Assembly: GCA_016199525.1 (NCBI GenBank)
Contig: JACQGL010000067.1
Coordinates: 1 to 54,327, forward strand
Direction: 5' to 3'
DNA from: Armatimonadota bacterium
GTDB taxonomy: Bacteria > Armatimonadota > SYMT01 > JACQGL01
DNA: 54,327 nt
Under the pieces are notes generated by a model, which saw only the letters and a program-made list of their open reading frames with translations, was not told the origin of the DNA and did not search any database. Below, one piece after another: positions 10,209 to 39,930 of this stretch. The stretch's first letter is position 1; each line of letters begins with the position of its first letter. Made by a program: the position numbers and the translations under genes.

Positions 10209-10281
10209 TGGACCTGGTCGGATTCGAACCGACGACCTCCACAATGCGAATGTGGCGCTCTCCCAGCTGAGCCACAGGCCC
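10209..10281 (-). tRNA. tRNA-Ala (anticodon CGC), CCA not encoded
   Basis: Reverse complement GGGCCTGTGGCTCAGCTGGGAGAGCGCCACATTCGCATTGTGGAGGTCGTCGGTTCGAATCCGACCAGGTCCA folds as a cloverleaf with a G3:U70 pair, a CGC anticodon and a GTTCGAAT T-loop. Confidence 0.97.
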
Positions 10282-34669: not shown

Positions 34670-35971
34670 TTAACGAACGCCTCCAGGCTCCAGATAGATG
34701 ACGCCGTGCCTGTCATCATAGGCAAGCAGCTCAGCGTAGCGACCCCAGCCCACCGCAGTTTCGATCTGGCGCTCCGCCTCTGGAGGGGGGAAATCCAGAC
34801 CGAGGGCGGTTTGCGCGACGTCCGCTTCAATCTGATGGTTGTCGGCGGCAGCGAGCATAGCGAGGAGCCACCTGAAAAGCGGCAAGCGGCGGATGCGGGT
34901 GGCAAATATTTCCTTGCGCGCCACAATGCTGGCAGCGGCAAAGGTTTCTCCCAGGGGAGTGAGGCTGATATCGCCCTGGGCGACGGTGGCGAATCCAAGC
35001 AACTCCGCCGCCTCCGTGAGGCGGAGAAGGTGATCCGAATTGATCTTGAGGTCGTCGGCCAAGCGGTAGATATCGGCGCGGTGGTGCGGGACGTCGGCCA
35101 GATGTTCCAGCACCGCCGCCAGCTCGTTCACTGTGACCAGCGGCAGCGCGCGTGTGCGGCCGGGTTCGCCAGGGGCGGTGCCCATTTCCACGTGCTCCGG
35201 CTCCGTCTGGCCCGCCAGGGTAGCGTAGACGCGATCCACCACGGCCAGAAATTCCGACCCTTTATGGTGCCGCGGGTGTGGCAGGTTCACCGGCAGGTCC
35301 GCGACCACGCGCCCCGGGTCTTTTTCCATCACCACGATGCGGTCCGCCATGAAGACGGCCTCTTCGATATTGTGCGTGACCATGAGGATGGCGCGCGTGG
35401 GGATGCCGCCGCCGAGCCACAGTTCCAGCAGCTCCCCGCGCAGCGCGTCCGCGCTCAGCACGTCCAGAGCGGAAAACGGCTCGTCCAGACAGAGCAGTTC
35501 CGGCTCCACGGCCATCGCGCGCGCGAACCCCACCTTCTGCCGCATGCCACCAGACAACTCGCGCGGGTAAGCGGTCTCGAAGCCGTCCAGGCCTACCCTG
35601 TCCAACAGGTCTATGGCACGGAGCGAACGCGGCTGCGGTGGCACCCCGCGCGCCTTGAGCGCCACTTCCACATTCTGCTGGACGGTGAGCCAGGGAAAGA
35701 GGGCGAAGCTCTGAAACACGATCGTCGCATAGGGGTTGACACCATGCAGAGGCTGACCGCGATAGAGGACCTGACCCTCGGTGGGCGCCTGCAGGCCGGT
35801 GATAATGCGCAGCAGCGTGCTTTTCCCACACCCTGAGGGCCCCAGGAGGGCGACGAACTCTCCTTCGTCTACCACCAGGTTAACATCCTGCACGGCGGGG
35901 AACTGGCGCTGGCCAGTGGTGTAGATCATGTGAATGTGCTGCAGTTCCAGCAGGTGGCTGTTCGTGGTCAT
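34670..35971 (-). CDS. NitT/TauT-family ABC transporter ATP-binding protein with C-terminal AAA-associated domain
   Basis: GPSGCGKS, LSGGMRQ, LDEPFSALD, and a C-terminal WGRYAELLAYD extension. Confidence 0.93.
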   Translation of the reverse strand: MTTNSHLLELQHIHMIYTTGQRQFPAVQDVNLVVDEGEFVALLGPSGCGKSTLLRIITGLQAPTEGQVLYRGQPLHGVNPYATIVFQSFALFPWLTVQQNVEVALKARGVPPQPRSLRAIDLLDRVGLDGFETAYPRELSGGMRQKVGFARAMAVEPELLCLDEPFSALDVLSADALRGELLELWLGGGIPTRAILMVTHNIEEAVFMADRIVVMEKDPGRVVADLPVNLPHPRHHKGSEFLAVVDRVYATLAGQTEPEHVEMGTAPGEPGRTRALPLVTVNELAAVLEHLADVPHHRADIYRLADDLKINSDHLLRLTEAAELLGFATVAQGDISLTPLGETFAAASIVARKEIFATRIRRLPLFRWLLAMLAAADNHQIEADVAQTALGLDFPPPEAERQIETAVGWGRYAELLAYDDRHGVIYLEPGGVR

Positions 35972-35974
35972 GGA

Positions 35975-37708
35975 TCACTCCATGCGAAAACGTTCCTCTG
36001 CCAGCCGGTAGAACCGGCGCCACACGAGGCGGTTAATGGCGACCACGGTGAGGATCATGGCGAGCGTGGCTGCGAGGAGGAGCGGATAATCGCCGGTAGC
36101 GGTAGCCTGGGCGATGAGAGCGCCAATCCCGATGGTTTGCCGCGTCCGGCCGCCAAAGGTCACGTACTCGGCGACAATGCTGGCATTCCAGGCGCCGCCG
36201 CCGGCAGTGATGGCCCCGGTGATGATATAGGGGAACAGCGCCGGCAGGATCAGGGTGATCCAGCGCTGCCACCGGTTCAGTTGCAAGAGAGCGGCGGTGT
36301 ACTTGAGATCCTGGGGAATAGCGCTGGCGCCCGCAATGATGTTGAACAGGAGATACCACTGCGTACCCATCAGCATCAATAAAAGGGCGGCCAGGTTCAA
36401 CCCGCCCGGCAGATGAAGGACCAGCAGCAGAAAAACGGGAAAGAGCGCGGTAGCGGGCACGGACGCGACAATCTGCACCAGCGGTTGCAGCCATATCGCC
36501 AGGCGACGGTTGGTGCCGATGGCGACGCCTATGGGAGTGGTCCAGGCAAGGGCAATCGCCAGCGCCGCCGCCACACGGAGCAGCGTCGCCACCAGCCCGA
36601 CACCGATTGCTCCCCACTCGGCCAGAGGGACCTTCAGCAACATGTCCCCCGCCAGGCCCGCGCCATAGAGAAGCCCCATGCCCCCCAGAACGGCGGCCGG
36701 ATAGACGGCCAGCGAGGTGCCCGCCTTCTCCGGCGCGGTGGCTACGGCGGCCGGAAACCGGCGCAGCAGGGCGCGATCCAGGTGTTCCGACAGGGGCGAC
36801 AGAAGGTGCCGTCCCAGCGATTCGACGACGCGGGAAGCCCGCAGCGTCTCGTAGAACCAGGACGTAGATGGGTTTTCACTTTCGACGAGTTCCAGGCTAA
36901 AGCGATCCGACCAGGCCAGCAGCGGGCGCCAGACGAGCTGATCCATAGCGATGATCAACAGAATCAGCGTGCCGATACCCAGCGCCAGGGCGTGGAGGTT
37001 CGCCTGGCGGGCAGCCTCGCTCAGGTAGGCTCCCAGGCCGGGCAGCCGGAAATCCCGCTGGCCGACGGTGAAGATCTCGGCGGCCATAAGGAAGAACCAG
37101 CCGCCCGCCCAGCTCACCATGCTGTTCCAGGTGAGGCTGATGGCGCCGAACGGCAGCTCCAGCGTCTTGAGCCGCAGCCAGCCGTTGAACCGGAAGATAG
37201 TGCTGGCCTCTCGCAGCTCTTTGGGAATGGTGGTCAACGCCTGGTACCAGGCGAAAGTAAGGTTCCACGCCTGACTGGTGAAGATGAGCGCCACGGATGC
37301 CAGTTCGGCGGCCACGTGCTGCGGCAGAATGGCCCGCAGGCTGAGCATTACCACGGGCAGAAATGACAGGATCGGTATGCTCTGGAGCACATCCAGCAAC
37401 GGCAAGAGGATCTTCTCTGCCCGGCGGTTGTAGGCCGCCAGATAGCCGTACACCAGGGAGAAAAACAGAGATAGGAGGTAAGCCACTCCCATACGGGCCA
37501 GGGAAAGCCCTGCGTATAGCGGCAACGCGCGGGGGGAGAGCGAAATGGCGGGGCCGTGGATCACCGCCGGCGTAGCCAGGGCCAGGCGCACCCCGACGTA
37601 GACCAGCACGGCAACCCCGAGCAGCACCACGGCGTCTCCCCACGCGAGGGGCCGCAGGGTGAACTGTCGGATGCTAAAGACCCGGACACGCTGTTCCATA
37701 GACGTCAT
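35975..37708 (-). CDS. NitT/TauT-family ABC transporter permease (duplicated domain)
   Basis: LDVLQSIPILSFLP, WNSMVSWAGGWFFL, GGAWNASIVAE. Confidence 0.92.
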   Translation of the reverse strand: MTSMEQRVRVFSIRQFTLRPLAWGDAVVLLGVAVLVYVGVRLALATPAVIHGPAISLSPRALPLYAGLSLARMGVAYLLSLFFSLVYGYLAAYNRRAEKILLPLLDVLQSIPILSFLPVVMLSLRAILPQHVAAELASVALIFTSQAWNLTFAWYQALTTIPKELREASTIFRFNGWLRLKTLELPFGAISLTWNSMVSWAGGWFFLMAAEIFTVGQRDFRLPGLGAYLSEAARQANLHALALGIGTLILLIIAMDQLVWRPLLAWSDRFSLELVESENPSTSWFYETLRASRVVESLGRHLLSPLSEHLDRALLRRFPAAVATAPEKAGTSLAVYPAAVLGGMGLLYGAGLAGDMLLKVPLAEWGAIGVGLVATLLRVAAALAIALAWTTPIGVAIGTNRRLAIWLQPLVQIVASVPATALFPVFLLLVLHLPGGLNLAALLLMLMGTQWYLLFNIIAGASAIPQDLKYTAALLQLNRWQRWITLILPALFPYIITGAITAGGGAWNASIVAEYVTFGGRTRQTIGIGALIAQATATGDYPLLLAATLAMILTVVAINRLVWRRFYRLAEERFRME

Positions 37709-37725
37709 GCAGGCAGGATTGGGCG

Positions 37726-37773
37726 CTACTGGCAGGAACTGACGATGGCGTGACGGCGGTGCTCACTGGTCAT
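37726..37773 (-). promoter_or_regulatory. Candidate leader uORF / cis-regulatory element (MTSEHRRHAIVSSCQ*) upstream of the ABC permease
   Basis: ATG 37773 follows GGGGT; TAG ends 17 nt before the permease ATG. Confidence 0.4.
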
Positions 37774-37822
37774 CTTACCCCAGTTCACTGCACGGGCATC
37801 CGACCGGTGCCGAACTACGGAA

Positions 37823-37935
37823 GGGGGTTGGAGGGTTGGAAAGTTTGAAGGTCGAAGATTGGCAGGTTCAACGGTCCGGACGCGCGAGCCTGCCAACCTG
37901 CAATCTGTGTACTACAACCTGTTAACCTGTAAACG
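37823..37935. repeat. Degenerate ~8-nt-period tandem repeats arranged as an inverted pair
   Basis: GGTTGGAG GGTTGGAA AGTTTGAA GGTCGAAG... facing ...CCTGCCAA CCTGCAA...AACCTGTT AACCTGTA. Confidence 0.55.
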
Positions 37936-37998
37936 CACCGATCTACGACCCGCTCATCTGCCAATGTGCCAGCCTCCCAACGGGCCGACGGTTGTGAT

Positions 37999-38361
37999 CT
38001 ACTCTCCCCACCGCGGCCCCCAGCGGTGCGCAACCCAATCGTAAAGGCGGTCGCTGATCCAGTGAAACCCGGGGAGGCGGCGGAGCGGCCGGAGCAACCA
38101 GCCGCCGGGCGCCAGGTAGAGGGTGTGCCAGATAGCATCCGCGCCCATCCAGCGGCGCCCGTCCGGAGCCAACAGCCAGGCGTGGCGCAGGCGCTCCTCG
38201 GCGGGCACGTCCTCCAGAAGGCGCGCCGCTACCTCGCTGCGCAGGGGTACGAGCCGCAGTCGGGCTTCCCCTACCAGGCACACGGCCCGGCGCGCCCAGC
38301 GGGCTCAGACACTTCACCGGCTCTCGTATAGAAGAATGTAGCGGCGGTCGGTCTGGGTCAC
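37999..38361 (-). CDS. DCC-family thiol-disulfide oxidoreductase with UxxU motif (two in-frame TGA; predicted selenoprotein), 120 aa
   Basis: GTG 38361 follows GGGAG. Reads MTQTDRRYILLYESR-TGA-SV-TGA-ARWARR..., in frame with the downstream DCC-like part (PDGRRWMGADAIW...LYDWVAHR). Confidence 0.8.
38261..38289 (-). promoter_or_regulatory. Candidate bacterial SECIS element
   Basis: CGGGC-CGTGTG-CCT-GGT-AGG-GGAA-GCCCG. The G-initiated apical loop lies 29 nt after the second UGA. Confidence 0.5.
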
Positions 38362-38649
38362 GGAACGTCTCCCAGAACAGCGGCGGAGAGGTGCGCACGC
38401 CGGTGCCGCTGCGGGCGCTCGACCATGCGGCATTAATGCGGTGCACCGGATACCTTGTCACCAGACCACTGCCGGGTGAAACCACGAAACGAGAAAACGA
38501 TGAGACGACCAGAGGCGGAAATGAAGGGCAGCGGCCCCTCGCGCCCCGTTTTCTCATTCTGTCGTCGCCTGGCTTCTTCGTGTTCCGGCTTCCTCGTCGC
38601 TTGGTTTCCTCATCTGCCAGGTACCCGCACGCTCCCGAAGGCCATCGGG

Positions 38650-39930
38650 ATGGGCCTCTCGCTCGCCGCGCTCGCGCTCGGGTGTGCTGCCAACCGGCCA
38701 TCGTTGCCCAGGCATCCGGGAGCACCGCCCGCCCTGGCTGCCCCGGCGCCCCGCCCCACGCCCCACCCCGGGAGCAACCCGGTGCTGCGTATCGGACTCC
38801 GCAAGGCGAGCGGTGGCGTGGCGGTAACGGTGGTTCCGAGCGCACGCGCCATGCTGGTGGATGCGGCCACCGGGCACCGCCTGGCCGTTCTGCCATCCGG
38901 TCAGCCGGCGCGCCTGGTCCTGGATGTGCACGCAGGGCAAATACAGATCGAGCGCCCGGGGCCGGTGATCGCCGCTCCCAGCGTGCGGATCCAGGTGCGC
39001 GGCGGCCGCCTGGCGATCCCGACTACCTCGGGACGCTATCCTTCCCCGCTCCTGGTCTACCCCGCTGCGGGAGGGCTCCAGGTGGTCAACGAGGTGCGCC
39101 TGGAGACCTATCTGGAAGGCGTTCTACCGGGCGAGCTGCCCCCTTCCTTCGCCCCAGAGGCACAGAAGGCCCTGGCGGTGGCCGCCCGCACCTACGCCCT
39201 GCGGAACCTGGACAAGCATACGGACGCGGGCTACGATCTCTGTGACGGCCCCCACTGCCAGGTCTACCTGGGCCATACGACCGCTTCCCCGCGCGGGCTG
39301 CGAGCGGTGCGCGCTACACGTGGCCTGTGCGTCTGGTTTCGCGGCCAGCTGGCCTGCACCTTCTATTCTGCCGACTGCGGCGGGCAAACAACGTTCGCCC
39401 GCGAGGTACCGCTGCCGGATATGCCCGCGCCGCCGCCGTCCTACCTCCGGCCCGTGCGGGATGCTCCTCGTCCCGCAGGCCCGGACTACTGCCGTCGGAG
39501 TTCGCACCACTGGTGGTCTGCCCGCGTGCCAGTGGCGGAGCTGGAGGCACGGCTGAACGAGGACCCCGGGACGGCGGTCGGGAAACTGCTGTCGGCGCGG
39601 TTTGGCGACCGGGATGTCACCGGCCGGGTGCAACGCGTGTTCCTTGAGGGGGAGGTTCTGGCGCCGACCGGCGCCACGCAGCGCCTGACGCGGATGCTCT
39701 CCGGCTGGGAGTTCCGGCGGCGGGTGGGGCCGCGGCAGATGCGCTCCACGCTGGCGAAGATCGAGCGGGTTTCGCCAGAGGAGTTCCGGATCACAGGAAC
39801 GGGCAACGGCCATGGGTTGGGCCTGTGCCAGATCGGTGCGGACGGAATGGCGCGCCCACCCTACTACGCCAACTTCCGTCAGATTCTGCGGCATTACTAT
39901 CCAGGGGTGCAGGTGGGGAAGGAGGGGTGA
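38650..39930 (+). CDS. SpoIID/LytB domain protein, probable lipoprotein
   Basis: VNEVRLETYLEGVLPGE, KALAVAARTYA, CDGPHCQVY, GNGHGLGLCQIGA, ILRHYYPG. Lipobox-like LALGC. Start uncertain. Confidence 0.9.
   Translation: MGLSLAALALGCAANRPSLPRHPGAPPALAAPAPRPTPHPGSNPVLRIGLRKASGGVAVTVVPSARAMLVDAATGHRLAVLPSGQPARLVLDVHAGQIQIERPGPVIAAPSVRIQVRGGRLAIPTTSGRYPSPLLVYPAAGGLQVVNEVRLETYLEGVLPGELPPSFAPEAQKALAVAARTYALRNLDKHTDAGYDLCDGPHCQVYLGHTTASPRGLRAVRATRGLCVWFRGQLACTFYSADCGGQTTFAREVPLPDMPAPPPSYLRPVRDAPRPAGPDYCRRSSHHWWSARVPVAELEARLNEDPGTAVGKLLSARFGDRDVTGRVQRVFLEGEVLAPTGATQRLTRMLSGWEFRRRVGPRQMRSTLAKIERVSPEEFRITGTGNGHGLGLCQIGADGMARPPYYANFRQILRHYYPGVQVGKEG

Follow-up and report, generated by a model that had tools for sequence, protein, structure and literature searches.

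The window, that is, the whole stretch of DNA analysed here, is a 54,327 nt contig (JACQGL010000067.1) of an Armatimonadota bacterium. Its minus strand carries, at 37999..38361, a gene for a DCC1-like protein (Pfam PF04134) in which the codons of both cysteines of the CxxC redox motif are replaced by TGA. We consider it very probable that this is a genuine recoded gene, belonging to a clade of DCC proteins that uses selenocysteine (Sec, U). The window's genome is a metagenome-assembled genome (MAG) of 266 contigs (assembly GCA_016199525.1), 88% complete and with 3% contamination.

The reading frame starts with the GTG at 38361-38359 and ends with the TAG at 38001-37999 (minus strand). A GGGAG ribosome-binding site, found by direct reading, lies 7 nt ahead of the start codon (38369..38373, minus strand). 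The frame comprises 120 codons plus the stop and reads VTQTDRRYILLYESR-TGA-SV-TGA-ARWARRAVCLVGE, where ARW follows immediately on the second TGA. The first in-frame TGA, codon 16 (38314..38316, minus strand), takes the place of the first Cys in the CxxC motif of the family, and the second, codon 19 (38305..38307, minus strand), that of the second Cys. Besides these two codons the frame holds no stop and no frameshift. The original prediction, made from the letters of the window, had extended the frame upstream to GTG 38361 with its GGGAG site and had read YILLYESR-TGA-SV-TGA-ARW in it; direct reading of the 120 codons gave the same start, ribosome-binding site and TGA positions. It had also expected standard gene callers to truncate the gene. 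This is what happened: the list of open reading frames contains only the 94 amino acid part past the second TGA (37999..38283, minus strand; GTG at 38283), and the entry for this locus in the protein database is the same 94 amino acid stub (P0003).

A Logan contig of 151 nt (depth 2), built from a run of a groundwater metagenome, shows no difference to window positions 38241-38391 and spans both TGA codons. The two TGAs thus occur together on real molecules and are not the product of a consensus chimera. The groundwater run may be the sample from which the window itself was derived, so the match does not count as an independent replication. The remaining run matches (about 35 nt, with several differences) were taken as chance matches, except two exact pieces in run X1.

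Family membership and motif states of relatives

For the family searches Cys was substituted for Sec at both TGA codons. The readthrough protein matched PF04134 with 55.6 bits (cut-off 27.8, E 1.5e-14), residues 10-112 aligning with positions 1-105 of the 113 positions of the profile. This was the sole Pfam match at E ≤ 1, and no NCBIfam family was found at the same threshold. Alignment to the profile had been proposed with the original prediction as a check; the match begins at profile position 1 and places both TGAs on the conserved Cys columns. A HMMER search over 1.84 billion representatives yielded 4082 matches at E ≤ 0.001. In an alignment of 98 sequences, consisting of the window protein and 97 relatives (eight read from DNA, the others from HMMER), the sole invariant columns are C16, C19 and Y107, and C16 and C19 correspond to the two TGA codons. 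The window motif Y-E-S-R-TGA-S-V-TGA stands in register with the family motif [YF]-D-x-x-C-x-x-C, with Glu in the place of the near-invariant Asp and TGA in that of both Cys codons.

An AlphaFold2 model computed on the alignment (predicted local distance difference test score 90.3, predicted template modelling score 0.81) has strand beta1 at residues 8-12, the motif at 16-19 and a helix at 17-30, which is the classic position of the redox motif in the thioredoxin fold. The top VIA-align matches of the model were GST-N, NrdH, glutaredoxin and thioredoxin domains (Z 5.0-8.2). Foldseek gave no match with the model at E ≤ 0.001, and no solved structure matched the DCC family profile by sequence search.

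In its profile match, length, predicted thioredoxin-like fold and motif position at the beta1/alpha1 junction the window protein resembles the Cys-type proteins of the family (DCC1-like/DUF393/YuxK, PF04134). It differs from them by UGA at both motif Cys codons, by Glu instead of Asp and by the lack of a C-terminal Cys. The Cys-type homologues close to the window protein (P0011-P0014, of which P0012, P0013 and P0014 were read as close Cys forms) have the motif YDxDCxxC. The C-terminal Cys, in the context C-R-L, is a feature of the majority of the alignment rather than a Pfam-defined requirement. The two compared sequences in which the first motif codon is TGA, the window (38002-38040, minus strand; C-terminus ...HRWGPRWGE) and the relative L027 (3330-3369; ...RHWGPLGR...), both lack this Cys and both have Glu for Asp; this comparison left out the frameshifted copy of genome G003, which is not in the alignment.

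A word-index search over 5.8 billion proteins found seven non-self matches (61-77% identity). All seven start at the same V/M-R-L-A-G just past the motif, as is to be expected of a gene caller that meets a stop there; P0004, which is 77% identical, is cut at the same place as the other truncated relatives. A scan of metagenome contigs with the alignment of relatives provided eight loci and genome searches in Armatimonadota provided more, so that the motif region could be read from DNA in nine relatives (L032 and L034 end ahead of the motif).

Six of the nine relatives have CxxU, sharing the TGA at codon 19 with the window: L028, L029, L030, L031, L033 and L035 (genome G004, an Armatimonadota MAG). 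The first five, all metagenome contigs 55-59% identical to the window protein, read Y-D-D-D-TGC-G-[FY]-TGA, and G004 reads TGT-G-M-TGA. Two relatives are UxxC, with the TGA at codon 16: L027, the closest relative (73-74% identity), reads Y-E-A-G-TGA-A-F-TGC, and G003 reads Y-D-E-D-TGA-G-F-TGC and has a frameshift further on. The remaining one, G001, is CxxC. The G003 copy (L041; contig C219 of that genome, about 1380-1680) has its frameshift about 50 codons past the TGA and no hairpin that fits the model used below; either this copy is decaying or the assembly is wrong here.

At both codons, then, TGA alternates with TGC or TGT among relatives, which was another check proposed with the original prediction. 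DCC matches (E ≤ 1e-5) were found in 68 of 401 sampled Armatimonadota genomes, and among these 68 only the window's genome, G003 and G004 have an in-frame TGA in the gene; one further row has a TAA. A single mutation would turn any of 28 of the 120 codons of the window gene into a stop, nonetheless both stops fall on the two invariant Cys columns. With the same codons being TGA in independent relatives, chance nonsense mutation at both Cys positions is unlikely, as had been argued from the window alone.

The first 30 rows of the alignment were used for a maximum-likelihood tree. The window and L027 form a pair (support 100/99), which is the sister of five CxxU sequences (91/80). This group lies inside a clade of 12 rows (97/96), in the other half of which G004 (CxxU) stands beside CxxC forms. 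The position of G004 next to a CxxC form suggests more than one gain or loss of Sec. Between the window gene and L027 the ratio of nonsynonymous to synonymous substitution rates (dN/dS) is 0.24 at dS 0.85; the 25 alignment columns that end with the second TGA give 0.41 and the remainder gives 0.21. By this pairwise comparison the gene shows purifying selection.

Candidate SECIS hairpins

According to the published model of the bacterial selenocysteine insertion sequence (SECIS; PMC13188914, Fig. 2 legend), the element has an apical loop of 3-9 nt with a G within the first two loop positions, an upper stem of 4-16 bp, a distance of 16-37 nt between UGA and loop, and a minimum free energy of at most -7.5 kcal/mol. 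We re-implemented these constraints in a script of our own, which considers ungapped stems and is not bSECISearch.

The best candidate for a SECIS core is hairpin B (38273..38291, minus strand; GCCGGGC-CGUGU-GCCUGGU). It has a stem of 7 bp, a loop of 5 nt with G at loop position 2 and a free energy of -10.6 kcal/mol. Its loop is spaced 29 nt from the first UGA and 20 nt from the second, and the hairpin agrees with the published constraints for both, which is the outcome that the SECIS check suggested with the original prediction was looking for. That prediction had pointed to another structure, a hairpin 29 nt past the second UGA whose apical loop is GGU. Such a hairpin is present, but its stem has only 3 bp (CCU-GGU-AGG), so that it fails both the 4 bp minimum and the -7.5 kcal/mol limit, and it is not the best candidate, its letters forming the 3′ arm of hairpin B. 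An alternative structure, hairpin A (38273..38300, minus strand), has 11 bp, four of them G-U, a CGGGCC loop and -16.1 kcal/mol; its spacing is 24 nt from the first UGA but just 15 nt from the second.

In L028, L029, L031 and L033 hairpin B is likewise found in register. The hairpin of G004, at 16 nt, has a GGUU loop and corresponds in position to hairpin A, and L027 has a GGGC-loop hairpin 25 nt past its single UGA. Altogether seven of the nine TGA-bearing sequences contain a fitting hairpin (L030 and G003 do not), and none fits in the one close CxxC form, G001 (0/1). Two selD pieces of the window's genome have SECIS-like hairpins 32 nt past the UGA that share the CGUGY loop, and the selD hairpins of relatives have GUG loops.

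The specificity of the fit is modest. Of 6000 random genome positions 10.5% had a fitting hairpin and 3.6% had one of -10.6 kcal/mol or lower, whereas a hairpin fitting both spacings was present at 6.6% of 6000 random positions. Of 27 rows of Cys-type DCC genes of Armatimonadota used as controls, 5 had a fit after the first Cys codon and 4 had one after the second; among these rows is one spurious motif match on the wrong strand of L062.

Selenocysteine machinery and gene neighbourhood

A search of the genome for selA, selB, selC and selD had been proposed together with the original prediction. Three of the four genes were found at least in part, and the incomplete assembly yielded no selC. 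The selA gene is complete and lies on the 2762 bp contig C219. A selB-like N-terminus (192.9 bits) was detected in a 397 amino acid open frame, which ends at the edge of the 2900 bp contig C76. Two N-terminal pieces of a Sec-type selD (C219:1-261, minus strand, and C159:3-272, minus strand) are 93% identical, lie at contig ends and both read C-G-G-TGA-A-S-K. Their 93% identity suggests the presence of two strains or copies, which would account for the broken state of selB, selC and selD in this assembly.

All five relatives of the same order that were tested have selA and a tRNA-Sec gene scoring 64-71 bits; in the two checked with ARAGORN (L066 and L068) this program also calls tRNA-SeC(tca). 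In G001, G002 and G004, where both genes are on one contig, selA is followed by tRNA-Sec at a distance of 1.1-1.5 kb. A selD motif was found in four relatives (L067-L070), each time upstream of tRNA-Sec on the same strand. In these genomes selC directly follows selD, and in the window's genome contig C219 breaks off inside selD. This synteny would place the missing selC at the assembly gap: judged from the gene order of relatives, the gene was most simply lost to the gap just past the contig end.

ARAGORN found 41 tRNAs in the window's genome, none with a tca anticodon. One of them is an 86 nt tRNA-Pro(tgg) with a paired extra arm (C29:3534-3619, plus strand), and a normal 75 nt tRNA-Pro(tgg) is encoded on C165. 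A 92 nt 'tRNA-Arg(gcg)' (C132:21888-21979, minus strand) has poorly pairing arms and is probably a false call.

Further selenoprotein genes were sought among the AhpC-TSA/TlpA-like genes. Six of the ten AhpC-TSA matches listed for the window's genome have one in-frame TGA each: C149:2483-2848 (minus), C265:9913-10275 (plus), C132:1674-2024 (plus), C132:5829-6212 (plus), C127:7408-7773 (minus) and C242:1078-1422 (minus). In five of them the TGA occurs in the motif W/F/Y-U-x-x-C, in one in F-T-G-G-U, and five of the six are followed by a SECIS-like hairpin of 7-8 bp at a spacing of 16-21 nt. AhpC-TSA matches are present in all eight genomes of the order that were searched; among the matches listed, four or more have an in-frame TGA in each of seven genomes, and one has it in G003. 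These sequences show that the organism uses Sec, and they point to an Armatimonadota order rich in redox selenoproteins. No in-frame stop was found in three matched stretches of two hydrogenase-like Complex1_49kDa (PF00346) genes of the window's genome, or in the matched parts of its six molybdopterin-enzyme matches. These matched parts provide neither a second UxxU case nor a Sec-type formate dehydrogenase.

Downstream of the DCC gene, on the same strand and after a gap of 290 nt, lies an ATP-binding cassette (ABC) transporter gene pair (34670-37708, minus strand), which encodes an ATPase with an AAA_assoc_C domain and a 577 amino acid double permease. Upstream, on the opposite strand, is a gene for a SpoIID-domain protein (38455-39930, plus strand). 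The L027 locus has a gene for a flavin adenine dinucleotide (FAD)-binding flavoprotein upstream of the DCC gene and does not share the neighbourhood seen in the window. Inferring the function of the DCC gene from an operon was rejected, since the gene neighbourhood is not conserved. Neither a sigma-70-like promoter nor an intrinsic terminator pattern was found in window positions 37600-38700. The sole Rfam match over the gathering score in the window is a tRNA-Ala(cgc) gene (10209-10281, minus strand).

Proposed decoding of the two UGA codons

We infer from these comparisons that both UGAs of the DCC gene are decoded, that Sec is inserted at both, that hairpin B acts as the SECIS and that the product is a redox enzyme. 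In the mechanism proposed here, an intact gene would be translated from GTG 38361 into a 120-residue thiol-disulfide oxidoreductase with the DCC1-like thioredoxin fold, UGA having replaced both Cys codons of the redox motif. At each UGA an intragenic stem-loop, for which hairpin B is the best candidate, would recruit SelB with Sec-tRNA(Sec), and one SECIS would serve both UGAs, which are 9 nt apart. With both UGAs read as selenocysteine the N-terminal motif at the beta1/alpha1 junction would be Y-E-S-R-U-S-V-U, and it would cycle between diselenol and diselenide. That Sec is inserted at both UGAs under a single hairpin, so that the active site is UxxU, is in our judgement more probable than not. 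The sequence evidence supports the original claim of a UxxU di-selenoprotein, Cys or termination at one of the two UGAs being the less probable outcomes.

A number of results weigh against Sec at both positions. UxxU was seen only in the window sequence, no relative read from DNA having more than one Sec codon in its motif, and no two-TGA AhpC-TSA gene was among the 150 matches listed for eight genomes (66 further matches exist). The near-invariant Asp ahead of the motif is Glu in the window protein, and the C-terminal Cys kept by CxxU and CxxC forms is lost in it and in L027. Hairpins A and B are mutually exclusive and compete. Folding of the 92 nt past the first UGA is no better than that of shuffled sequences (z = +0.49; z = -1.28 for G004). 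No pair of hairpin B changed on both sides, shuffles reaching the observed covariation values, and its conservation could come from coding constraint (W-A-V-R-L-A-G). An Rfam search of window positions 37900-38450 at E ≤ 10 yielded neither a SECIS nor any other credible match, and the sequencing runs listed for the locus include no RNA run. As to the machinery, selB and selD are present in the window's genome as fragments only. SelB wing 3 (PF09107) was not found in it, probably because the selB frame stops at the contig end. A tRNA-Sec gene was not found there by Rfam RF01852, by ARAGORN or by blastn with the tRNA-Sec of five relatives; the best RF01852 match, with 46.4 bits, is a tRNA-Ser according to ARAGORN. 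Lastly, parsimony does not distinguish an old UxxU from a recent single change in the window lineage, as both take three steps. In the first history the ancestor was CxxU, the first Sec was gained before the window and L027 separated, and the second Sec reverted in L027; in the second history a CxxC ancestor was followed by separate Sec gains.

The tie leaves some room for a recent null allele. Here a single-Sec ancestor (UxxC or CxxU) would have had its remaining Cys codon changed from TGC to TGA, which would be poorly recoded, and the gene would be a young pseudogene or a low-yield allele. The uniqueness of UxxU among all recovered sequences fits this explanation, and so does the second codon of L027, whose TGC is one base from the TGA of the window. 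The first-Cys TGA of G003 sits in a frameshifted copy without SECIS fit, and pairwise dN/dS is blind to a recent loss of constraint. Against it, the extra stop would have hit exactly the other invariant Cys although 28 codons were one step from a stop, and the 120 codons show no frameshift or other stop. Moreover, hairpin B is spaced 20 nt from the second UGA, as in the CxxU clade and within the 16-21 nt usual in this genome, so that recoding of a UGA at this place is to be expected. Because the window keeps the hairpin of the CxxU clade in register and L027 has lost it, the history with a CxxU ancestor, in which Sec at the second position and UxxU itself would be old, is favoured. For these reasons we regard a null allele as unlikely.

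It is also rather improbable that one or both UGAs are recoded in a SECIS-dependent manner with Cys, by a tRNA-ReC (selC*)-like tRNA on SelB, to give a CxxC, CxxU or UxxC product. PMC13582414 describes tRNA-ReC-like tRNAs in five of five Armatimonadota genomes with UXXU-type hydrogenases and warns that either or both UGAs may be translated as Cys. As the assembly of the window's genome contains no Sec-type tRNA genes, a tRNA-ReC-like tRNA could be missing from it as well. On the other side, the ARAGORN calls for this genome, made with no dedicated search for a tRNA-ReC model, include one ordinary 71 nt tRNA-Cys(gca) and no tca anticodon. In each of the five same-order relatives RF01852 gave a single match above 60 bits, and the next-best match that was examined (L071) is a tRNA-Ser(tga).

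The 94 amino acid protein starting at GTG 38283, with the upstream TGAs as ordinary stops of a decayed N-terminus, is what automatic annotation offers, but it is very doubtful as the real product: in the AlphaFold2 model it lacks beta1, most of helix alpha1 and all of the redox motif, in-frame conservation with L027 (DRRYILLYE) covers the 15 codons ahead of the first TGA, and a GGGAG site precedes GTG 38361. An artefact of assembly or sequencing, be it a consensus of UxxC and CxxU strains or base-call errors, is scarcely credible even in a 266-contig MAG with 3% contamination and two 93%-identical selD fragments, hence possibly more than one strain, as the TGAs are 9 nt apart, below any read or k-mer length, and the independently built 151 nt Logan contig has both without a difference.

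Decoding of both UGAs as Sec would place the DCC protein beside a few known systems. Sec in the place of Cys in CxxC-type motifs of thioredoxin-fold proteins is the commonest kind of bacterial selenoprotein. SelL, a thioredoxin-fold UxxU selenoprotein of aquatic eukaryotes for which a diselenide has been proposed, belongs to a eukaryotic peroxiredoxin (Prx)-like family and has its SECIS in the 3′-UTR; no search in this analysis related it to DCC. Recorded cases of UxxU include Prx-like proteins, a protein that binds metal and a member of the FmdB family (PMC13188914, PMC9312934). The Prx-like selenoproteins (PF00578; PMC13188914, PMC9312934) are likewise thioredoxin-fold redox proteins with Sec in a CxxC-type motif, and the window's genome has six such members of its own (UxxC/TxxU). 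The window protein falls into another Pfam family, with PF04134 as its sole match, so that the likeness is one of motif and fold class. The Prx-like genes of this genome have Sec at a single position, the members of the DCC clade at either position or at both.

A parallel in motif states comes from Group 4 hydrogenases. In PMC13582414, 16 UXXU-type sequences are reported, some from Armatimonadota, and the possibility is raised that one downstream SECIS serves for decoding both UGAs. As in the DCC clade, CXXC, CXXU, UXXC and UXXU occur within one family and the UGAs are three codons apart. The hydrogenase motif, as described there, binds Ni-Fe in a large complex, whereas that of the window is the redox motif of a stand-alone protein of 120 residues. 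The names DCC, DCC1, PF04134, DUF393, YuxK and COG3011 are absent from the main text and tables of the selenoproteome reviews PMC13188914 (2026) and PMC9312934 (2022), whose supplements could list the family, and literature searches covering titles and the beginning of abstracts found no paper linking DCC, DUF393, PF04134 or YuxK to selenium.

Whether DCC1-like proteins represent an uncatalogued bacterial selenoprotein family, with a small clade comprising CxxC, CxxU, UxxU and UxxC forms in which the window protein is the UxxU form with one SECIS and a diselenide site, is to our mind an evenly balanced proposition. If it is true, the gain of the first Sec would be tied to the loss of the Asp and of the C-terminal Cys and would mean a changed catalytic mechanism. 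If both UGAs encode Sec, the gene would be a natural test of the reach of a SECIS, with one hairpin acting at 29 and 20 nt. It would also allow diselenide, selenenylsulfide and disulfide to be compared, with natural UxxC, CxxU and CxxC versions available at 40-74% identity. The interest of the locus thus lies in a hidden branch of the family, a rare double-Sec motif and a natural CxxC/CxxU/UxxU/UxxC series. As this DCC gene and all seven of its closest database relatives are cut to a stub without the motif, a Sec-using branch of a widespread family is invisible in annotation, and its recognition adds to the evidence for an Armatimonadota order rich in redox selenoproteins.

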